Shown: positions 5,560-59,507 of the stretch, one piece after another
How positions within the stretch are numbered: position 1 is the stretch's first letter
Layout: each line of letters begins with the position of its first letter
From: an uncultured Nitrososphaerales archaeon
Lineage (GTDB): Archaea > Thermoproteota > Nitrososphaeria > Nitrososphaerales > Nitrososphaeraceae
Reading direction: 5' to 3'
Assembly (NCBI GenBank): GCA_963695855.1
Contig: CAVOHZ010000008.1
Coordinates: 320,001 to 384,000 of the forward strand
DNA length: 64,000 bases
Notes under the pieces: generated by a model
Told to the model about the DNA's origin: nothing
Seen by the model: only the letters and a program-made list of their open reading frames with translations
Database searches by the model: none
Program-made: the position numbers and the translations under genes

Positions 5560-6099
5560 CTAGTTACCTGGAGGTTGTTCTTGATCTGTTTGTTTAGTCA
5601 TAATCTGAGATCTAATCGAAGCCAAGGATTGATCAATTTGATATACTGCTAGTTTGTCTCTTCCAATTATCTCGAACTTTTGAAGAATTGCTTGAAATAA
5701 AGTCTCTTCTTCTACTTGTTCACTTACAAACCATTGCAAGAACGAGTATGTAGCACGGTCTTTTTCTTTTTCAGCAATTTCTACTAAATTGTTAATGAGC
5801 TTTGTAACAGTTTGTTCACTATTTAGACCAGCTTGGAAAGTAGATTCTAGTGAATCGAATTTACTTTGAGGCTTTTCTATCGCTGGAATTATCGCTTCGG
5901 CTCCAGTATTATTAAGATAGTGAAGGAACTTTAGCATGTGTGTATTTTCTTCATTAGCTTGTTCGAAAAAGAATGCTGCACTTCCCTCATATCCAGTTCT
6001 TTCACACCAAGATCCAATAGCAACATATGCATTGGTAGCTGATGCTTCAAAAGAAATTTGATCATTAATTGCTTTTTCCATTTGTGATGAAATTCTCAT
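5560..6099 (-). CDS. ftnA: non-heme ferritin
   Basis: INDQISFE..., EENTHMLKF, FLQWFVSEQVEEE ferroxidase motifs. Confidence 0.93.
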   Translation of the reverse strand: MRISSQMEKAINDQISFEASATNAYVAIGSWCERTGYEGSAAFFFEQANEENTHMLKFLHYLNNTGAEAIIPAIEKPQSKFDSLESTFQAGLNSEQTVTKLINNLVEIAEKEKDRATYSFLQWFVSEQVEEETLFQAILQKFEIIGRDKLAVYQIDQSLASIRSQIMTKQTDQEQPPGN

Positions 6100-6725
6100 T
6101 GTAACAATGTTAGTATTTCTCGGATATCTATATATTTTGGAATCGAGTTTTTTAGAAATACTAGTACGGCATTATTCATCTTTAAAGACGAGAAAAGAAG
6201 TTACGTCTGTGCGGAAGTAAATACAAAAATTTGGATAGTATAATTTGTACGGGCATAAACTTGTTTCTGTCATAATAGATGAGACTATCATACAGATTGG
6301 AAGCAAACATTACTGGTTACAGGTTTGTATTGAGCCAATACACAAAACAGGCTTGGAACTCTATCTAAGTACGGAAATATGTTAGTACTTTTATGTTTTG
6401 ATATTTGGTTGAAAAATATGGTAAGCGTACAATATGTTCAACTGATGGTATTTTGTAGTCGGAGGAGGCCTGCAAGACAATGAGATTGAACCATCACTGT
6501 ATTGCCGACTGGAAAAGAAGATGATTGAAATGTTATGCAGTATTTCAAAGATAGAATGGAAGGATTCGATGATTATTAAACATGTATCGAAAAAGAAAAT
6601 GAATGCAACTTCTTTAATGTAAATAAGTGGTTACAATTCTTTGTCTCTCTATAACGATACGTTATACAATAATAATTATTTTATAATTGAGTTGTAAGAC
6701 AGAGGTGTTAATCTATCTTAAATTA

Positions 6726-7749
6726 TGCTCTGTTGCGTAACTCGTCTAGATAATCATCTATTTTTTGTTACTAAGGTAAATTATGTAACCCTTATACTTT
6801 GAAACCAGTTATACAAAGACGCTTTCAGTATTATCTCCTTTATCATGTTCTCAAATCTTATAGCAGTAACATATTCGCCAAACATTCTCTTAATACAGGA
6901 AAAGACAGTTTCTACAATCCATCTTTGTCCATAGTCTACACTATCCTTCCATTGTTGTAGATTGGTTTTCTGTGATTGTACGTTCTTGTTTCTCAAATAA
7001 TGGTTTGTCTTTCTATACTTGGCATTCTTTCTTACTTTAATTGCTGGTTGAATTCCTTTAAATGATAAAAATTGAAAATTCTTGTTACTGTCATAGGCAC
7101 CATCCATAATGGCAGTTTCAACTACTTTGTTCTGTTTTATAGTTATATCACCCACTAATTTAGGTAATACTTTTCCATCATGCACTTCTTCACTGGTTAC
7201 ATGTAATGATAGAATTCTCTTCTTTTTTATGTCAACTGCTATATGTATTTTGAGATAACCTCTTTTTACTTTCCATTTGTGCCTAATCCATTCTCCTCTG
7301 TTTGTAACTTTAACACCAGTAGAATCAATTACAATTACAAAATTATCATCATGTTGTAAAGTGGATTTATCCTGATCATCATCATCATCATCTATTTTGA
7401 TATCCAATCTGTTTATTCTTCTGCAAATCCCGCTATAATCTGGAATTGATGGTAACGTATTTGCAGCATGAGCTCGTACAATACCCTCAGTTTGTCTGTA
7501 TGGTAAATGAAAATATGCTCTCACATATCCAAGTAGTTTGATGAATGACTCTGGATATACAAATTTTCTACCTTCTTTGTATTCATTCATCTTCTCTAGT
7601 TCATAATCCCAGTTATCTATAACATCAAAATCAAGTAATACCTCACCACGTTTAACAAGAGATTCATTGTACCTCTTCCAGTTCACATGTATTATGACTA
7701 GAATAGGCTAGCTAAATGTGTTAGGAATAGCGAGTTACGCAACAAAGCA
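6726..7749 (-). mobile_element. IS5-family (IS903-like) element, intact
   Basis: 19-bp IRs TGCTCTGTTGCGTAACTCG / CGAGTTACGCAACAAAGCA; 8-bp TSD TTAAATTA. Confidence 0.95.
6781..7686 (-). CDS. IS5-family DDE transposase
   Basis: NWKRYNESLVKRG, IDSTG, MDGAYD, YGQRWIVETVFS. Confidence 0.95.
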   Translation of the reverse strand: MNWKRYNESLVKRGEVLLDFDVIDNWDYELEKMNEYKEGRKFVYPESFIKLLGYVRAYFHLPYRQTEGIVRAHAANTLPSIPDYSGICRRINRLDIKIDDDDDDQDKSTLQHDDNFVIVIDSTGVKVTNRGEWIRHKWKVKRGYLKIHIAVDIKKKRILSLHVTSEEVHDGKVLPKLVGDITIKQNKVVETAIMDGAYDSNKNFQFLSFKGIQPAIKVRKNAKYRKTNHYLRNKNVQSQKTNLQQWKDSVDYGQRWIVETVFSCIKRMFGEYVTAIRFENMIKEIILKASLYNWFQSIRVT

Positions 7750-7834
7750 TTAAATTAACACAGTCCTTTAATTATTATTTCTTCTATTATCTTGAAATTA
7801 CAACTGGCTATTGCTCAACCCAAAATGACTAATT

Positions 7835-52688: not shown

Positions 52689-53627
52689 GAGCCTATCCCA
52701 AAATTAACCTCCTATGAACAATTATGCTATTAGCTATTAGCCAATTGTACGAGACAGAGATAGTTCTCATCCTTCTTTTCATATCTTGTAAATAATTTCA
52801 TCATGAATCGATTATGCCAAGAATTTGTTCTCTCTACCACCCATCTTCTTGCAGGATGTCTCTTGTTGAGTTTCTTTTCTTCTCTTCTGTGTCGTATATG
52901 TGGAATATATCCTCTTTTGGTAATTTCTTGTTCTACTTCCTTGGAATGATATGCTTTGCTTTGTCAAGACATAGATTCTGCTTTTTCTTATTCTTCTTCT
53001 TGTTTCTATATTTTGCTATTGATGATGAAGGTGGTGGTCTTTTGATAACAATATTATCAATTGTATTTGTTGCAACAGTAACATCATGAGTATATGCAGA
53101 TGTTATAACAGTTGAAAGGGGAATACCATCTTTATCTGTTAAAATATGTCTTTTACTACCTAATTTACTTCTATCTGTAGTAGGATTATGACCTGTCATC
53201 GCCCCCCTAAAGGCGATTTTATAGAGATGCTATCAAGTGACTGCCAGTTCCATCTGATTCCTCTTTTGTTTTCATATATTTTTAGCAATCTAAACCGTAG
53301 TCTCTCAAAAATACCTGACTGCCTCCATTCTTGAAATCTTCTATGACATGTAGAACCAGAACCATATTCTTTGGGTAACATTTTCCATTGACATCCAGTT
53401 CTCAAGACAAACAGGATACCATCAAATACTTCTCTGTAAGGAATAATGGGACGACCTATTGTATTCTATGGTTTTTCAAAAGGGAAAATATTTGTAATTT
53501 CATTCCAAAGATCATCTGGAATAAGTGTAATTGTTCCAACATACTTTCTACTCCTACACAAACAAACATGATCGGATACGATATAAAACCAAAGAGCTAT
53601 ATTCTTATCTATTTTTGGGATAGGCTC
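52689..53627 (-). mobile_element. IS5-family (IS427-like, split ORF) element, degraded
   Basis: IRs GAGCCTATCCCAAAA, TAA on both flanks; RTGCQW..LP, G-run frameshift site, GSKRH..TD; further breaks in orfB. Confidence 0.9.
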
Positions 53628-54072
53628 TAAAGTAAAGCAGGAAAGGGTGCGTATTTAATTAGATTATTATTTTCCCTGAGACAATATCTTACATCTTTTT
53701 CTAATGAGTCGATTCGATTTCCTACAAACTTCCTACTAAACTTTATAATCTCATTAGGGTCAGAAAAGAATTTCATGAATTTATACACTTCATAAATCCT
53801 TTTATAATAATAAAATTTATCCTAATACAGTTAATATAATAACATTGTTCTAATAAAAAAGGAAATAATTTAGTAAAAGCATTTAGTAAATATGAATTAA
53901 TATTTGATCATGTAACTTTCAAAATGAACTCTGCTTTGGTTGGATCGTTTTTGATTAATTTTCTCCAAATCTAAAAGGTTAGTAGATGAATAACAGGTCT
54001 TGACATTACCTTCATTAACAAATTAAATTAAATTAAATTATAATTTATTTCATTAATCAAACCCATTTACTC

Positions 54073-54399
54073 TTAGTATTTAGTCATGTCTTCAATCAAT
54101 TTTATATCTTTTTCATCTACACCTTCAAGGCATTTAAAATCCTCAACATCCAAACCTAATTCTTTTTTTAGGTTTTGTATTCTATTAGCATACTTGATTT
54201 CATTATCAAATTCACCTTTGTTAAGAGCAATAGAATAACCTACCCAGCATTTGTGTAGAGCGCCCCACGTTTGACTGTCGTAATATGATGAATTTAAAAT
54301 TTTATGATATCTACTACCTTCTCTATAATATCTACCAGGATTAAATCCATATTTATAAAGATATCCAGGATAATATCTTCTATATTTATGTGAACGCAT
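54073..54399 (-). CDS. hypothetical protein (108 aa)
   Basis: ATG ORF, Tyr-rich N-terminus, helical WGALHKCW...RIQNLKKELGL. Confidence 0.7.
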   Translation of the reverse strand: MRSHKYRRYYPGYLYKYGFNPGRYYREGSRYHKILNSSYYDSQTWGALHKCWVGYSIALNKGEFDNEIKYANRIQNLKKELGLDVEDFKCLEGVDEKDIKLIEDMTKY

Positions 54400-54562
54400 A
54401 CTAATAATTATTTTATCTTCTAAACTATTTATAATTTAAAATCAAGGGGTTTGGATGGAAAAATATTCAATTCTAAATCTATTATATTTCTTGCAATATT
54501 TTTAACATTTTAGAAATTTGAAGACAGAAGTGGTAATATACTTCCTCATGAGTTTTCAAGAT

Positions 54563-54799
54563 TTATAATTGTTTCTCCCATCTTCCACCATTATCTTCCC
54601 ATGTTTCATTTATTTTATCATGTTTTTCTATTTCATAACTATCTTCCGCATAAGTTATGTTATACTCATATTCATCTTGAAGATTTGTATTTTCAGGAGT
54701 GCAATTACCATCATCCCATTCTCCATGGTAATAAGGATAGATCTCTTCCTTGTCATTATCATTGATGATACTTGATGTTTTTCCATTAAACTATAACAT
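54563..54799 (-). pseudogene. acidic small ORF with stop at codon 3
   Basis: ML*FNGKTSSIINDNDKEEIYPYYHGEWDDGNC...WEDNGGRWEKQL*. Confidence 0.35.
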
Positions 54800-54917
54800 A
54801 TTATATTATTCTACAATTTTTTATAACAAACATATTTTATTAATATTATTAGATTTAAACAATCAGAAAATCAGGCTCTGACGATATGAAAATCTTTTAG
54901 TCTGTTTCATTACTGTA

Positions 54918-55042
54918 TGTTGGCTAGGTTCAAAATTAACATACTCCGTATGAGAGTGAGGCTCTGACTGAACCGTATCTGTGAAGTGGCTATCATAGTA
55001 CCCTTCGAGGGTGGATGGATGTTTGCCACCTGTTAGCCAACA
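54918..55042 (+). ncRNA. putative bridge/seek RNA of IS110 element 1
   Basis: Outer stem UGUUGGCUA/UAGCCAACA; target loop closed by GGUUCA/UGAACC with AAAUUAACA and AGGCUCUG; donor loop closed by GUGGC/GCCAC with AUGGAUG. Confidence 0.85.
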
Positions 55043-55070
55043 AATAAAAAAAGAAGGTGAATAAAAATAA

Positions 55071-56151
55071 TTGAATCATCTTGGAATAGATGTTGGAAAG
55101 AAAAAATGCAGCGCAGCACTAAAAGATGATAGAGGCAAGACACTGGATGAATTCTTCTTTGGTAACAATTCTGATGGAATATTAGAACTGATTGAAAGGA
55201 TACACAATCATGGAACAAAAAAATGTAATGCAGTACTGGAATCTACAGGAAACATGTGGATGAGAATACATGATATATTGGAAGATAATGGAATAGATAC
55301 AGTACTAGCAAATCCATACAGAACAAAGATAATAGCACAAGCAAAGATAAAATCAGATAAACTTGATGCACGTATATTATCTGATCTGCTGAGAACTGGA
55401 TTGGTATACGAGTCATATGTACCTGTAAAGAAAGGAATTCAGAGAAAAAAGAAGTCTGGTCAGACATAGAATAGTCTTGTCTAGAACCAAGACAAAACTT
55501 GCAAACAAGGTACATGCTATTTTAGACAAATATGAGTACAGAACAGAGCTGACAGACATATTCGGTAGATCGGGAATTGAGTGGCTAAAATCACTCTCAG
55601 TTTCACCAATAGACAGGATAATACTGAATACAACACTAACATCCATAGAATCGATAGATAACCAGATAGAAATAGTATCAAAAGAGATAGCAAAATACGC
55701 ATGGAAGGATAGTCAAGATGTAAAGATACTTCTCAGCATGACAGGAATAGACGTATTTTCTGCAATGCTGATATCAACGGAAATAGTGGATATCACCAGA
55801 TTCTCTACACCATGGAAACTTGTTAGTTATGCAGGATTATCTCCATCAACAAGAGAATCATCTGGAAAAACAAAAACAGGTAGAATAACCAAACAAGGAT
55901 CACCATTATTAAGATGGATACTAGTACAGTGTTCATTATCTGCAGTAAGACATGACCGTCACATGAGAACCTTCTATGAAAGAATCAAACAGAGAAAGGG
56001 ACATGGGAAAGCAATAGTTGCAACAGCAAAGGAGGTGCTTATTATAATATGGTACATGCTAACAAGACACCAATTGTATAGATACATGAATAGAACAAGG
56101 TATGAACAGAAACTGGAAAGTCTGAAGAAGAGTGGATCGCAAGAAAGGTAA
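55071..56151 (+). pseudogene. IS110 DEDD recombinase with one frameshift near 55430
   Basis: GIDVG, LEST, KSDKLDAR; C-terminal YAGLSP...SSG, ITKQGS..LRW; AAGGTGA RBS upstream. Confidence 0.92.
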
Positions 56152-56314
56152 CAATTAAACAAAAAAGACAACGACCTCAGAGAACAAGGATGTCATATAT
56201 AGCGGAGGCTATTGCTAATAATGCTTAATAGATAGAAAAACATAACAAAATGAGGCTAAACAGGATAGAAAAGATAACCAGCATACAGGTAGATTTTCAT
56301 GGATGTTAATTTAA

Positions 56315-57233
56315 GAGCCTATCCCAAAAATAGATAGGAATATAGCTCCTTTGTTTCTTATCATATCTGATAATGTTTAAGAGTGAAAAATATGTTAGAA
56401 GTATTACATGTATTCCAGATGATCTTTGGAATGAAATTACAAATATTTTCCCTTTTGAAAAACCATAGAATACAATAGGGCGTCCCATTATTCCTTACAG
56501 AGAAGTATTTGATGGTATCCTGTTTGTCTTGAGAACTGGATGTCAATGGAAAATGTTACCCAAAGAATATGGTTCTGGTTCTACATGTCATAGAAGATTT
56601 CGAGAATGGAGAGAATCAGGTATATTTGATAAATTATGGAGCAGATTATTAAAATTATATGATTTAAAGAAAGGAATAAAATGGAACTGGCAGTCACTTG
56701 ATAGCATCTCTATAAAATCGCCTTTAGGGGGGCGATGACAGGTCATAATCCTACTACAGATAGAAGTAAATTAGGTAGTAAAAGACATATTTTAACAGAT
56801 AAAGATGGTATTCCCCTTTCAACTGTTATAACATCTGCATATACTCATGATGTTACTGTTGCAACAAATACAATTGATAATATTGTTATCAAAAGACCAC
56901 CACCTTCATCATCAATAGCAAAATATAGAAACAAGAAGAAGAATAAGAAAAAGCAGAATCTATGTCTTGATAAAGCATATCATTCCAAGGAAATAGAACA
57001 AGAAGTTATCAAAAGAGGATATATTCCACATATACGACACAGAAGAGAAGAAAAGAAATACAGCAATAGACATCCTGCAGTAAGAAGATGGGTGGTAGAG
57101 AGAACAAATTCTTGGCATAACAGATTCAGAAAATTATTTACAAGATATGAAAAGAAGGATGAGAACTATCTTGGTCTTGTACAGTTAGCAAATAGCATAA
57201 TTGTTCATAGGAGGTTAATTTTGGGGTAGGCTC
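56315..57233 (+). mobile_element. IS5-family (IS427-like, split ORF) element
   Basis: IRs GAGCCTATCCCAAAA / TTTTGGGGTAGGCTC, TAA on both flanks; orfA with in-frame TAG, G-run junction, orfB 56735-57229 (DKAY, RWVVER..W...R.L..RYEK). Confidence 0.92.
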
Positions 57234-57596
57234 TAAGTACTTTGTTATCTGACCTACCCTATCAATCTGACAAAAATTTTTTGTCTAGTAAAATATTTTT
57301 AATAAATTCAAAATCAATATCTTTTTAAATTAAGTGAAATAGTAACAAATACTGATTTTACAAAAAAAATTTATAAAGAAAAGCATAAAAGAAATTTTTA
57401 GAATTGACAATTTAATAGCTCGATATATGGCAGTCTTGGATAATGTCTGTTACATTTATTGATTCGTCTTTTTTAGTAGAAAATTCTACCTGAGTAATAA
57501 ATTACAAAATTTATAACTAAATAATTAATCTGAATAATTCTAGATTAAATGTTATTTAGGTTTGTATCCCAATACTAATATAGATTTAATCCACAT

Positions 57597-59507
57597 TTGA
57601 ATTTGAAATTAATAATGAACATCATGATTAATATTATATTTTTAAAATTATTTTCATTATTATCAGTTTCATTCTTAATATTATTGTCAATGACTTTTCC
57701 TATTAAGAGTTTTTCCTTTACACAACAAAATTTTGAACAACCTGCTATGGATCAGCCGGCTATCGCGCAATTACCTTCACCAGATGAAAAAAATAAAATA
57801 GGTTACATAATATTAACAACAAATGTTATTAATGATAATGGAGGTAATAAACAACCCTCCGATTTTACAATAAACATTCATGACACCTCAGCATTTCCTT
57901 CTTCATTGGAAGCTGTACCATCACCACAAGTTCAAATTATTTCTGTTAATGAAGGTAAATACTCAATTTCTGTAAATAATGTTAATGGATATAATATATC
58001 TCTTGAAAACCAATGCGAAGGTGTTATAAATTATGGTGAAGTGAGATCTTGTCTTATTATTGCAGATGATGATGGTAATATTTCTTCTACTTCAAAATTA
58101 CCGATATTACCGCTGTCCCTATCTGACTTACTTCTCCCTGACCTTGCAGGAAAAGATCAGGATATTAAACCTAAAATTGCAGCGATACCAAAACCAGCAG
58201 ATCCGTCTAAAGTAGGATTTCTGTTAATATCAACAAATGTTATTAATGATAATGGAGGTAATAAACAACCCTCCGATTTTACAATAAACATTCATGGTAC
58301 CCCAGCATTTCCTTCTTCATTTAAAGCTGCTTCATCGAAGATGATCCAAGTAGTTGCTGTTTCGGAGGGACAATACTCTGTGTCAGTCGCTAATAGTGTA
58401 GCTGGATATCAATCATTCCTGCAATTTGAATGTCAAGGTCAGATTAATCCAAACGAGATAAAAACTTGTTTAATTACATTAAATGATATTTCATCGCCTA
58501 TACCTTGTCCACAAGGACAACACCTTGAGAATGGTCAATGTGTTCCAAATCCACCAGAACCCTGTCCACAAGGACAACACCTTGAGAATGGTCAATGTGT
58601 TCCAAATCCACCAGAACCCTGTCCACAAGGACAACACCTTGAGAATGGTCAATGTGTTCCAAATCCACCAGAACCCTGTCCACAAGGACAACACCTTGAG
58701 AATGGTCAATGTGTTCCAAATCCACCCCCTACAGGAGGGGCATTTCCAGTACAAGGTGTCATCTGGATGTATGATTCAAAACAAACATTAATCAATGACA
58801 TCTCACTGCCATCAGGAGAGACACATCCCATCGATAAAGTGTTATTGTCTAGTGGAGCTAGTGGTGTAAACGCACATATTATTAAGAATGGTTGGCTAGA
58901 AGTGCAATCGGGTGGTGGAAATGGTAGGGTATATTGGGATTATCATGAATTACCACAATTTTCACAATTAGATACAGCTGGTTTCAACACTGTAATGACA
59001 GGAACATTTAAGCTAAAACCTGGAATAGAGAATTTATCAATAAAAGACGGGAATCATGGTACAGATGGATGGATTTTGGATGGTAAATTGGTGTTTGGTG
59101 GATTCGGATTCTCAATTCATAGGACTGAAGTTCAATCGAAGGTAGAATACTGGCATAACCTGCAGGGTCAGGAAGTCGCTTCCCAATATCCAAACGGTAT
59201 CATACTACAAGACGACAAAGAGTACAAATTCTTCTCAACTATGAGAACTGATAGGACAAATAATGAGGTAGTACTCAATGTGTGGTTAGATTTCGGCGAT
59301 GGTAAAGGATGGGTCCTAGTTATGAAAGATAGGAAGTGGGGTATGTCTGGATGGAATCCAGATGGTATTCCAAATGGAGACGATACAACAGAAATAGAAA
59401 AGGGTCCATCATTTATTAAAAAACATCATATTTGGACTAGAGCAAATGGATCGGGACATTTACCAATCAAAGATATAAGAATAGGTACTATAAGCTTTAT
59501 TTCCTAA
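57597..59507 (+). CDS. modular secreted protein: 2x beta-sandwich, 4x Cys/Pro repeat, unassigned beta-rich C-terminal domain
   Basis: Signal peptide; TNVINDNGGNKQPSDFTINIH twice; CPQGQHLENGQCVPNPPEP x4. Confidence 0.88.
   Translation: MNLKLIMNIMINIIFLKLFSLLSVSFLILLSMTFPIKSFSFTQQNFEQPAMDQPAIAQLPSPDEKNKIGYIILTTNVINDNGGNKQPSDFTINIHDTSAFPSSLEAVPSPQVQIISVNEGKYSISVNNVNGYNISLENQCEGVINYGEVRSCLIIADDDGNISSTSKLPILPLSLSDLLLPDLAGKDQDIKPKIAAIPKPADPSKVGFLLISTNVINDNGGNKQPSDFTINIHGTPAFPSSFKAASSKMIQVVAVSEGQYSVSVANSVAGYQSFLQFECQGQINPNEIKTCLITLNDISSPIPCPQGQHLENGQCVPNPPEPCPQGQHLENGQCVPNPPEPCPQGQHLENGQCVPNPPEPCPQGQHLENGQCVPNPPPTGGAFPVQGVIWMYDSKQTLINDISLPSGETHPIDKVLLSSGASGVNAHIIKNGWLEVQSGGGNGRVYWDYHELPQFSQLDTAGFNTVMTGTFKLKPGIENLSIKDGNHGTDGWILDGKLVFGGFGFSIHRTEVQSKVEYWHNLQGQEVASQYPNGIILQDDKEYKFFSTMRTDRTNNEVVLNVWLDFGDGKGWVLVMKDRKWGMSGWNPDGIPNGDDTTEIEKGPSFIKKHHIWTRANGSGHLPIKDIRIGTISFIS
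58503..58727 (+). repeat. intragenic 57-bp tandem repeat x4
   Basis: TGTCCACAAGGACAACACCTTGAGAATGGTCAATGTGTTCCAAATCCACC repeated in frame. Confidence 0.97.

Follow-up and report, generated by a model that had tools for sequence, protein, structure and literature searches.

An archaeal IS1111-type element with a predicted bridge RNA matching IS6-type terminal repeats and the element's own ends

Recombination guided by bridge (seek) RNAs was shown in bacteria in 2024. An insertion sequence in a 64,000-nt window (the whole stretch of DNA that was analyzed) from an archaeon of the family Nitrososphaeraceae raised the question of whether an element of this kind can be directed by its own RNA into the terminal repeats of other mobile elements. 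An earlier note, made from the sequence alone, had described it as an archaeal IS110/IS1111 element with a decodable bridge RNA aimed at IS6-type ends. The evidence below indicates that positions 54881-56303 are very probably a transposase-dead copy of an archaeal, IS1111-type element of the IS110 family, whose own RNA reads an IS6-type target as well as the element's own ends. NCBI already applies the name "RNA-guided transposase" to these archaeal proteins, so that the mechanism itself is not new, and the element provides a natural and well-supported example of it.

Anatomy of the element and its transposase

The ends of this copy, designated A1, were set by comparison with four further full-length copies that were 87-100% identical. 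The TG cores (54879-80 and 56304-05) and sub-terminal inverted repeats were found where the earlier note had placed them. The features of the element and its surroundings are as follows.

54873-54880, + strand: left target half, GGCTC plus the TG core, the opening seven bases of the IS6-type terminal repeat
54881-56303, + strand: IS110-family (IS1111-like) element, copy A1, 1,423 bp, non-autonomous
54886-54895, + strand: left sub-terminal inverted repeat ATGAAAATCT, conserved family-wide
55071-55469, + strand: N-terminal piece of the transposase (DEDD_Tnp_IS110), 132 aa, TTG start preceded by GGTGA
55427-55430, + strand: frameshifting 4-nt insertion (AAAG) that copies A2, A3, and A4 lack; also in copy A5 at another locus
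55477-56151, + strand: C-terminal piece of the transposase (Transposase_20), 224 aa, motif GLSPSTRESSG
56291-56300, + strand: right sub-terminal inverted repeat AGATTTTCAT; GGA and then the TG core come after it
56304-56314, + strand: TG core and right target half (TTAATTTAA); the final G of the repeat is at 57237, past the IS5 element
56315-57233, + strand: separate IS5-family element (frameshifted DUF4096 and DDE_Tnp_1) in the same terminal repeat, not belonging to the IS110 element
57237-57339, + strand: remainder of a probable degenerate IS6-derived miniature; its second repeat, decayed, apparently lies near 57325-57339

The sub-terminal repeats are 10 bp long, and 5 nt separate the left repeat from the left tip of the element, compared to 3 nt on the right. 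TG is present at both junctions and nothing beyond it is common to the two; thus, there is no longer target duplication. The IS5-family element is flanked by TAA repeats (56312-14 and 57234-36). With both insertions removed, the focal target looks like the IS6-type terminal repeat of a degenerate miniature of ∼119 bp rather than that of an intact IS6 element, and the remnant at 57237-57339 is a unique stretch in the genome. The left sub-terminal repeat may also be a TATA-like box, as it lies ∼25 nt ahead of the predicted start of the RNA.

[quoted passage not shown] Copies A2 and A3 are intact and encode 356 aa, whereas A4 is broken and A5 is interrupted, so that three of the five full-length copies, including A1, are broken. 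Both Pfam domains are present in intact copy A2, and the intact copies matched NCBIfam transpos_IS110 ("IS110 family RNA-guided transposase") with an E value of 4.5e-66 and a score of 223 bits (cut-off, 140 bits), which bears out the family assignment made in the earlier note. The intact copies carry the motif GLAPSTRESSG, of the GLxPxxxxSG type. Alignment to IS621 matched up GID, E(S/A)TG, KxDxxDA, and SG, which comprise the catalytic residues (acidic residues of the RuvC-like fold and the serine of the SG motif) according to the available part of PMC11208158; the only relatives with solved structures are the IS621 and ISCro4 transposases. The earlier note had suggested repairing the frameshift before functional tests; such tests need no repair, because two intact copies are present in the same genome.

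The archaeal host is supported by the SSU rRNA, which best fits the archaeal model, and by named homologues from Candidatus Nitrosocosmicus. A bacterial origin, considered because some homologues are labeled "Bacillus" or "Sulfopaludibacter," was rejected; the bins so labeled are metagenomic and comprise 1 to 16 short contigs, and the labels were taken as weak.

The predicted guide RNA and its target

The left end of the element contains a predicted RNA upstream of the transposase.

54913-55045, + strand: predicted bridge (seek) RNA of ∼130 nt in the left end, with an outer stem (54918-26/55034-42) and target-binding and donor-binding hairpins
54927-54974, + strand: predicted target-binding loop, stem GGTTCA (54927-32)/TGAACC (54969-74), inner hairpin 54940-52
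54986-55029, + strand: predicted donor-binding loop, stem GTGGC (54986-90)/GCCAC (55025-29), inner hairpin 55000-12

Model R1 matched the focal copy at 54913-55050. The minimum-energy fold of 54881-55070 reproduced the outer stem and the two internal-loop hairpins that had been drawn by the earlier reader. As a single sequence the fold is weak, with a z-score of -1.70 and 11 of 200 shuffles folding equally well. An Rfam search of 54000-57500 under an E-value threshold gave four weak, unrelated matches far below gathering scores, and no Rfam family covers the RNA.

The target loop carries AAATTAACA at 54933-41 and AGGCTCTG at 54959-66, followed by AC (54967-68), the opening two bases of the element, in a handshake-like arrangement. 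On the 5′ side of the donor loop is TATCATAGT (54991-99), in which TATCAT (54991-96) complements bases 1 and 3-6 of the left end. Its 3′ side reads ATGGATG (55015-21), equal to the right end plus core, and then TT (55022-23), the initial pair of the right flank. The strings originally picked out in the loops are at their given positions, and the actual matches are longer: AGGCTCTGAC (10 nt) equals the left flank, the core, and the element's initial two bases; AAATTAACAT (10 nt) reverse-complements the right junction; and ATGGATGTT (9 nt) equals the right end, the core, and the initial two flank bases. Mononucleotide shuffling of the left end produced matches as long as these in 9, 19, and 123 of 5,000 trials, respectively. 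The lengths of AGGCTCTGAC and AAATTAACAT occurred jointly in 1 of 20,000 shuffles, and all three lengths together in none of 20,000.

The sequence targeted is GGNNCTGTTAANTTAAG, the terminal repeat found on a 723-bp IS6 element and on its miniatures of ∼118 bp. The 723-bp element, with 32 copies of at least 600 nt in the genome, has terminal repeats of 17-18 bp and an ORF of 219 aa. The product scored 38.5 bits against Pfam DDE_Tnp_IS240, above the 27-bit cut-off, and matched 200 of 202 positions of NCBIfam transpos_IS6 with an E value of 3.3e-29 at 102 bits, below the 125-bit cut-off. The genome holds 13 copies or fragments of the IS110-family element (five full-length copies, one 38-nt fragment, and seven miniatures), and every one occupies the identical place and orientation in an IS6-type repeat, with ...CTG on the left and TTAA.TT on the right. 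Most of these targets are IS6-derived miniatures rather than full IS6 copies. The sequence GGCTC was found at 10 of the 13 occupied repeats versus 10 of the 93 repeats that are empty (Fisher P = 1.2e-6; one genome), and GGTGC, the commonest empty variant (25/93), is never occupied in this genome. These results support a preference of the copies for the repeat variant spelled by their own guide. The proposed aim at IS6-type ends is upheld by the protein matches, the constant site and orientation, and this preference. One supporting detail, an IS6-type 18-mer at position 7766, required correction: the string as it stands reads ...TTTAATG, and only deletion of an IS5-type insertion together with its 8-bp repeat restores the 18-mer.

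In the mechanism that best accommodates these observations, the element encodes a DEDD/serine recombinase, and the ∼130-nt bridge RNA upstream of it would be transcribed and processed from the left end. Loop 1 would read the target and loop 2 the element's own joined ends, with the 3′ side of loop 2 corresponding to the right end plus TG and its 5′ side pairing with left-end bases 3-6. The 3′ sides would extend two letters into the partner DNA (AC of the left end and TT of the right flank), as handshake guides would. By analogy with IS621 and ISEc11, the complex of recombinase and RNA would excise the element as a circle, the junction of which would recombine with a target at the common TG, in a presumed strand order and without target duplication. 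The programmed target would be bases 1-16 of the terminal inverted repeat of the resident IS6 family and its miniatures; the insertions accordingly fall 7 bp within other mobile elements and share a single orientation. Copy A1 could move only if an intact copy such as A2 or A3 provided the recombinase.

Covariation across Nitrososphaeraceae and recombinase-less miniatures

The case for decodable guides comes from comparison across the family, in which each side of a loop covaries with the flank or end of the copy that carries it. The check that the earlier note had proposed, a collection of homologues, a covariance model, and a comparison of guides with flanks, was carried out. The covariance model found the RNA in 33 of 151 genomes and in 8 of 18 genera of the same archaeal family. 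The stems were paired in 87.8% of cells in nine sequences from the focal genome, versus 28-38% when partners were slid. Among 99 matches (94 distinct), 83.1% of cells were paired versus 19-36% with partners slid, and changes on both sides were seen in 29 of 30 pairs (175 such cells versus 60.3 ± 6.3 in shuffles, with none of 500 shuffles as high), alignment A3 (an alignment, distinct from copy A3) having been fitted to the model, which favors the model's structure.

The loops covaried with the DNA beside which they are found. The five letters of the left flank agreed exactly with the guide in 38 of 91 de-duplicated pairs, versus 21.45 ± 2.58 when permuted, and inexactly in the remaining 53. 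Variant guides matched their own variant flank at all five letters in 11 of 39 cases (e.g., GGTCC, GGTGC, GGCCC, AGTTG, and TTATT), and consensus guides were at a consensus flank in 27 of 52; some variant guides, such as those of copies L113 and L051, are at a consensus site. The right flank agreed with the guide at a mean of 5.49 of 7 letters (37 pairs) versus 4.995 ± 0.094 when permuted, and the 3′ side of the donor loop matched the right end exactly in 28 of 40 copies versus 17.84 expected. In each of these three of the four loop-versus-flank or loop-versus-end tests, none of 20,000 permutations was as good, although such figures overstate independence because the copies are related and de-duplication was by flank identity only. 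On the 5′ side of the donor loop, agreement with the left end was found at position 3 in 60 of 79 copies (G/G in 31 and T/T in 29) and at position 5 in 68 of 79, whereas left-end base 2 was complementary in just 7 of 79; this side does not pair with the core. The handshake letters of the target loop matched AC with AC in 71 of 92 copies; among 40 copies compared at the donor loop, 31 had TT matched with TT and 3 had TA matched with TA. Covariation of loops with flanks and ends, together with the stems, thus supports a decodable bridge RNA.

Right ends were called by a motif rule for 49 of the 99 matches; no convincing right end was found for L115, and at least two calls that were spurious or doubtful (L006 and L045) were dropped before size classes were compared. 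That comparison left out L073, L115, and L051, the sizes of which are beyond 287-400 bp and 1,390-1,475 bp. Miniatures of 287-353 bp made up 27 of the 49 elements with both ends found, and each consists of two ends and a predicted bridge RNA and nothing else. Their left ends mostly read ACT.. (17 of 27 read ACTATATG) and their right ends ..ATAGA in 12 of 27. The full-length elements instead have left ends reading ACG.. (16 of 17, with one ATG..) and right ends reading ..ATGGA (16 of 17). Full-length copies and miniatures show no conservation of the 152-bp non-coding sequence at the right end. Miniature B5 carries guide GGTCC at a GGTCC site, and fragment F4 carries GGTTC at a GGTTC site; neither target guide is found in the full-length copies of the genome.

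On balance, these miniatures appear somewhat more likely to be a separate lineage of "guide-RNA-only" mobile elements than passive deletion derivatives. We think that the donor loop of the miniatures has co-evolved with their own ends. Since this loop fits the miniatures' own diverged ends, they would borrow the protein alone and supply their own programmable donor and target address. Recombinase-less miniatures with an RNA that matches their own diverged ends are more novel than the focal element.

Present activity of the family is something that we infer, and it is unlikely that the family is a fossil in which RNA guidance once worked, the genome's copies all being inactive relics and their conservation reflecting recent common descent only. 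Broken transposase genes in three of the five full-length copies and decayed guides in many miniatures would suit such a history. Against it, two 356-aa reading frames with conserved motifs are intact, the left ends of A1 and A5 are 100% identical at two loci, and the stems and guides show compensatory changes, which imply that selection acted during the family's history. Metatranscriptome contigs (soil, rhizosphere, and sediment) contained only small shares (0.04-0.09) of words; contigs from four RNA runs were 85-99% alike over parts of 55033-56400, not 54913-55032, so that soil and rhizosphere RNA libraries hold sequences like the transposase part, with DNA carry-over possible, and the contigs are uninformative on the small RNA.

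A recombinase that finds the IS6-type repeat by protein-DNA contacts, with the left end as a 5′ regulatory leader and its likeness to the flanks incidental, is highly improbable. Loop letters covary with each copy's own flank at variable positions and with each copy's own ends, and the repeat variant that matches the guide is preferred within one genome, even though conservation of the target repeat makes a protein reader conceivable and the single-sequence fold is unremarkable. A regulatory, structured 5′ UTR has been reported for ISPpu9 in the available part of PMC12288879. However, copy L116, with wholly different loop letters, is at a wholly different matching site (guide ATTATTTG beside flank ATTATTTG), a natural retargeting. 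Least probable of all is that the identity of loop and flank reflects a captured IS6 repeat and insertion by homology, or copies spread with their flanks by segmental duplication: A2, A3, B3, and B4 do have identical right flanks over at least 30 nt in the same miniature family, but outer left flanks vary between copies, the two target halves are non-contiguous in the element (the right half reverse-complemented and upstream of the left half, with a hairpin between), the donor loop obeys the same logic with the element's own ends, and the insertion point is base-exact in every copy.

The reading of an RNA-guided element also gives the locus wider value. The ∼100 copies in 33 genomes of ammonia-oxidizing archaea are a natural data set in which every guide segment and the handshake letters can be read through covariation. 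The element is a parasite on parasites, homing into the ends of IS6 elements and miniatures, and the family helps explain the pile-up of insertion sequences at the same repeats in Nitrososphaeraceae genomes. For tool building, the genome supplies two intact mesophilic archaeal recombinases of 356 aa whose guides are long, with 9-10 matched letters per side in the focal copy. The hybrid layout, with IS1111-type polarity and repeats and an upstream RNA, and the miniatures that encode the guide RNA alone are further additions made by this locus.

Comparison with known systems

No paper on this family or on bridge-RNA-only miniatures was found in the literature searched; large mining studies, available in part, may include the family unnamed, and the supplements of PMC11187229 and PMC11208160 may list relatives.

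The closest relatives of the transposase outside its own family are haloarchaeal, with 38-40% identity. Among named elements, ISHvo10 presumably has a Haloferax-style name. Haloarchaeal relative L119 (38% protein identity) has the same layout, as judged by eye rather than by score. Model R1 gave only non-significant matches on two haloarchaeal loci and one rhizobial locus (E values, 0.95 and 1.4); both haloarchaeal matches, likewise non-significant, are just upstream of the transposase. By their description in the available part of PMC11187229, ISMtsp17 and the diverged ISHvo10 and ISAcp5 are similar, being of IS1111 type with upstream or two-sided long non-coding regions.

In the IS1111 group, as far as described in that part of PMC11187229, the top-strand match of the seekRNA is 5′ of the bottom-strand match and the RNA is downstream of the transposase, with few exceptions allowed. 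In the focal element, AAATTAACA (top-strand complement) precedes GGCTCTG (top-strand identical), which is the IS1111-type order. Its RNA, unlike the downstream rule, is upstream (54913-55045, with the ORF from 55071). The IS110 group proper (IS621-like) has very short sub-terminal repeats or none, and its bottom-strand match comes 5′ of its top-strand match. Of the features of this group, the upstream position of the RNA alone fits, the 10-bp repeats and mirrored guide order being different. By these criteria, applied to its sequence, the element reads as IS1111-like with an atypical upstream RNA. ISEc11, ISKpn4, and ISPa11 (Siddiquee et al. 2024, PMC11187229) have in common with it a DEDD transposase with a GL-P----S(t)G motif, and seekRNA elements of the group share its guide strand order and site-specific insertion without duplication. 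Sub-terminal repeats are 7-17 bp in that group, compared to 10 bp here, and transposases are 330-350 aa, compared to 356 aa. In contrast to the examples described there, the focal element has an upstream RNA, an archaeal host, and a TG core. If haloarchaeal relative L119 does share it, this combination of upstream RNA, IS1111-type polarity, and TG core would mark an old archaeal branch of the family.

In IS621, according to the available parts of Durrant et al. 2024 (PMC11208160) and Hiraizumi et al. 2024 (PMC11208158), the RNA is also upstream, in the left end. Both RNAs have two internal loops, target loop before donor loop; in both, each loop reads both strands around a 2-nt core, and two handshake letters after each 3′ guide match the non-cognate DNA. 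However, in the IS621 loops it is the 5′ side that pairs with the bottom strand and the 3′ side that pairs with the top strand, the reverse of the focal RNA; with this mirrored guide order, the recombination site would be inverted relative to the direction of the RNA. The focal element also has long sub-terminal repeats and a TG rather than a CT core. The IS621 protein is only distantly similar to the focal transposase (E value, 5.8e-9).

IS4321 and IS5075 are IS110/IS1111-family elements that insert into Tn21-type terminal repeats. ISEc21 inserts in IS3 transposase genes, according to the available part of PMC11187229. Like the focal element, these have a programmed target inside another mobile element and a single orientation; the targets and hosts differ. 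The nearest parallel to the miniatures is MITEPpu9 of ISPpu9, which is described in the available part of PMC12288879 as an IS110-family miniature with a small-RNA gene between element ends, thought to be mobilized in trans. Its RNA, Ssr9, is presented there as having complementarity to an antisense RNA and a possible regulatory role, and not as the guide (PMC12288879). In contrast, the miniatures described here carry the predicted bridge RNA itself, with donor-loop letters fitted to their own diverged ends.

An archaeal IS110-family element and its putative guide RNA

The coordinates that the earlier note had assigned to the focal element (copy A1) proved correct when checked in the sequence.

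Features of the focal element and its neighbor (window positions; cores and repeats from the sequence check)
54879-80 and 56304-05, TG cores
54886-95, left sub-terminal repeat ATGAAAATCT, 10 bp, 5 nt from the tip
55071-55469, ORF, DEDD_Tnp_IS110 half of the transposase
55477-56151, ORF, Transposase_20 half of the same transposase
56291-300, right sub-terminal repeat AGATTTTCAT, 10 bp, 3 nt from the tip
56315-57233, separate IS5-family element, itself frameshifted, with TAA repeats (DUF4096 + DDE_Tnp_1, NCBIfam transpos_IS5_3)

Compared with intact copies, the transposase of A1 is broken by a 4-nt insertion at 55427-30. The host genome is archaeal, an archaeal model being the best match to its SSU rRNA, and the named transposase homologues come from Candidatus Nitrosocosmicus. 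Further along the window, an ORF at 57597-59507 (636 aa) contains ∼63-nt near-identical repeats (58483-58791) encoding repeated PCPQGQHLENGQCVPNPPE units, as read from the ORF list.

Guides in the focal copy were identified as the longest words that the junctions have in common with the inner part of the left end. There, AGGCTCTGAC equals the left flank, core, and first two element bases in the same sense; AAATTAACAT is the reverse complement of the right junction; and ATGGATGTT equals the right end, core, and first two flank bases in the same sense. These lengths were reached singly in 9, 19, and 123 of 5000 mononucleotide shuffles, respectively; of 20000 shuffles, 1 reached the first two jointly and none reached all three. 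Minimum-energy folding predicts for the left end an outer stem with two hairpins whose internal loops contain all three words. The z-score of this fold is only -1.70, and the case for the predicted RNA structure is carried by comparison across copies.

The genome of the window has four other full-length copies. A2 and A3 (88% identity) have intact 356-aa frames, A4 (87%) is broken, and A5 (94 to 100%) is interrupted by another insertion sequence. In addition, there are one 38-nt left-end fragment and seven transposase-less elements of ∼316 to 353 bp, which retain the first ∼190 nt at 73 to 79% identity plus the right end; in one of the miniatures (B1) the longest open frame is 44 codons. All of these elements are preceded by ...CTG and followed by TTAA.TT on the right side. 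The frameshifting insertion (55427-55430) is common to A1 and A5 (C10:166436-168911), which lie at different loci and have 100% identical left ends; therefore, a transposase-dead lineage has given rise to at least one further copy, for which the protein was presumably provided in trans.

Among nine distinct sequences from this genome, 87.8% of cells in the proposed stems were paired, versus 28 to 38% when partners were slid by 1 to 3 columns. The donor hairpin had compensatory changes in the outer stem (U-A to C-G) and the inner stem (C-G to U-A and A-U to G-C). A covariance model (R1), a step that the earlier note had proposed, matched 33 of the 151 genomes of the family (this genome included), in 8 of 18 genera. 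The family-wide alignment (99 matches from 99 loci, 60 further places having been fetched; 94 distinct rows) supported the stems: 83.1% of cells were paired versus 19 to 36% when slid. Changes on both sides were found in 29 of 30 pairs, and doubly changed cells numbered 175, a count that none of 500 shuffles reached (60.3 ± 6.3). All of these figures are inflated by the model-fitted alignment and sequence kinship, biases that the slid controls also carry.

Covariation of guides with flanks and ends

The earlier note had also called for a test of guide-flank covariation, for which loop segments were taken from the model alignment and junctions from the locus of each match. Loop letters track their own flanks beyond permutation on both sides. 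Of 92 left-flank pairs, 91 were left once identical flanks were removed; the five letters before TG were identical to the guide in 38 of 91, versus 21.45 ± 2.58 with flanks permuted (0 of 20000). The match was exact for 27 of 52 consensus guides (GGCTC) at the consensus flank and for 11 of the 39 guides that differed from it (GGTCC three times, AGTTG twice, and GGTGC, GGCTG, GGCCC, AGTTA, AGTCC, and TTATT). Mismatched variants also exist; for example, L113 and L051 have GGTCC guides at GGCTC sites. One of the unmatched rows counted here is L049, whose genome is flagged unpublished. On the right flank (37 pairs), the mean agreement was 5.49 of 7 letters versus 4.995 ± 0.094 (0 of 20000), with 11 exact matches against 4.86 expected (p 0.002).

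The 3' side of the donor loop equaled the element's own right end exactly in 28 of 40 cases versus 17.84 expected (0 of 20000), with ATGGA matched to ATGGA in 22 and ATAGA to ATAGA in 6. Its 5' side tracks the G/T difference at base 3 of the left end, agreeing at position 3 in 60 of 79 copies (G/G 31, T/T 29) and at position 5 in 68 of 79 (T/T 54, C/C 14). Position 2 was complementary in only 7 of 79, and the 5' side leaves the core unpaired.

The AC that follows the target 3' guide equaled left-end bases 1 and 2 in 71 of 92 cases, and the TT that follows the donor 3' guide equaled right-flank bases 1 and 2 in 31 of 40. A TA variant with a TA flank occurred in 3 of 40, all in a single genome (L076-L078, G064 C5). 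These are full-length copies aimed at ..GTTAACAGTTG/TG/TAAA.., and their donor-loop handshake letters are UA, in place of the UU of other copies, matching the TA with which the right flank begins. In another genus, the target-loop stem of L116 (G014 C1) and L115 (G070 C48) is compensated (GGCCC/GGGCC), and the guide letters differ markedly. Those of L116 match a flank that is not of IS6 type (ATTATTTG/TG.., the right side reading TTAT), a natural case of retargeting. A search for the right end of L115 found none.

IS6-type target sites and guide-only miniatures

The proposal that IS6-type ends are the programmed target was supported, in that the repeat belongs to a 723-bp IS6-type element and the guide-matching variant is preferred. 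The pattern GGNNCTGTTAANTTAAG (≤1 mismatch) has 93 unoccupied occurrences in the genome, which pair as the two ends of ∼720- to 730-bp and ∼118-bp elements. The 723-bp element is present in 32 copies of at least 600 nt; its 219-aa product scored above the cut-off for Pfam DDE_Tnp_IS240 and matched nearly the whole NCBIfam transpos_IS6 profile (E 3.3e-29), below the curated cut-off. The IS110-type elements insert between bases 7 and 8 of the repeat, with the TG common to both, and always face into the IS6-type element or miniature. The GGCTC of the guides was found at 10 of 13 occupied sites, compared with 10 of 93 unoccupied ones (Fisher p 1.2e-6). Among the empty sites, GGTGC is the most frequent variant (25 of 93), and in another genome a GGTGC guide lies at a GGTGC site (L034). 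Site choice thus follows the predicted guide.

The focal site agrees with the pattern at all 15 specified letters, and the sequence to its right occurs nowhere else in the genome. With both insertions removed, ∼119 bp extend to a decayed second repeat, and we infer that the target was a degenerate miniature.

An IS5-family element lies at the same base of the IS6-type repeat at three loci (window 56315-57233, C6:216834, and C10:1052426); therefore, the repeat is a landing site common to at least two unrelated insertion sequences. In a diverged IS6 copy (∼6013-7766), the right terminal repeat is split by an IS5-family element (∼6727-7749) with a 301-aa transposase (NCBIfam transpos_IS5_2, 281.6 bits) and flanking 8-bp repeats TTAAATTA.

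Among 49 elements with both ends found, 27 were 287 to 353 bp and 19 were 1333 to 1471 bp. After two doubtful right-end calls were dropped, 17 full-length elements were compared with the 27 miniatures.

Ends and donor loops of full-length elements and miniatures
Left end: full-length, ACG.. in 16/17 and ATG.. in one; miniatures, mostly ACT.., 17/27 reading ACTATATG
Right end: full-length, ..ATGGA in 16/17; miniatures, ..ATAGA in 12/27
Donor loop 3' side equal to own right end: full-length, 16/17; miniatures, 19/27

None of the 17 full-length elements in this sample had a donor loop fitted to ACT../..ATAGA ends. The match between the miniatures' donor loops and their own ends suggests that they are recognized through their own RNA and that only the protein is borrowed. 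The seven miniatures of this genome, L007-L013 (C10:1354508, C10:1746449, C8:114012, C10:1407618, C8:∼187906, C3:465565, and C3:∼37669, none inside the window), each combine a left end bearing the bridge RNA with a right end; the letters of their donor loops fit their own ACT../..ATAGA and not the ends of full-length copies.

Relationship to known systems

Outside the family, the best transposase matches in plasmid records had at most 40% identity, the top ones being haloarchaeal (Natrinema, Halobellus, Haloarcula, and others), followed by rhizobia. R1 gave no significant score on two haloarchaeal loci (E about 1); both weak matches lie directly upstream of the gene. One IS110-family element (38% protein identity), L119 on the Halanaeroarchaeum sulfurireducens plasmid pHSR2-01 (NZ_CP008875.1, ∼52784-54160), combines, by eye, a TG core with sub-terminal repeats and an upstream two-loop RNA that matches its flanks and ends. 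Its left junction ..GGCCTTG/ACT.. recurs as GGCCTTGACT in a loop, and its right end is ..CATAGG/TG/TTTA, with AUAGGUG and UAAACA in the loops. This is a lead that the focal layout may be shared. An IS5-family gene lies directly to the right of L119.

In the focal element, the RNA would be transcribed from a TATA-like stretch inside the left repeat, and transcription would continue into the transposase message; the RNA is not followed by a T-run, and the TTG start has GGTGA ahead of it. RNA processing, circle formation, and exchange at TG would follow.

Overall, the interpretation in the earlier note holds, and the observation is real. It is a well-documented, putatively RNA-guided addition to the IS110 elements, a kind already known: 662 archaeal IS110 recombinases are on record (bioRxiv 10.1101/2024.06.21.599552), bridge RNAs are regarded as a general trait of the family (PMC11208160), and the NCBI model that matches the transposase already carries "RNA-guided" in its name. 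Its value lies in clean natural covariation, a hybrid layout, homing to IS6 ends, and guide-only miniatures. No description of such miniatures was found in the literature searched. The nearest reported case is MITEPpu9, whose small RNA is not presented as a guide in the accessible text of that report (PMC12288879), whereas the miniatures described here carry their own bridge RNA with a matched donor loop.

IS1111 elements are characterized by sub-terminal repeats and the motif GL-P----S(t)G, their seekRNAs are distinguished from those of IS110 type by a reversed guide order, and their non-coding region lies downstream in most cases, ISMtsp17, ISHvo10, and ISAcp5 being among the few exceptions (Siddiquee et al., PMC11187229). 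The focal family has the repeats, the guide order, and the motif (GLAPSTRESSG), but its RNA is upstream, unlike the usual IS1111 arrangement. It is therefore filed in the IS110 family in the wide sense and, as far as sequence can place it, is IS1111-like but lacks one defining feature. In IS621, the two handshake letters after the 3' guides pair with non-cognate DNA after exchange (PMC11208160, PMC11208158). Compared to IS621, the guide order of the focal element is mirrored; its 3' sides are identical in sequence to the left halves' top strand, and these are the sides that extend two letters into the partner. Read on the other DNA strand, the focal plan is exactly that of IS621, except that the site of recombination is inverted with respect to the RNA.
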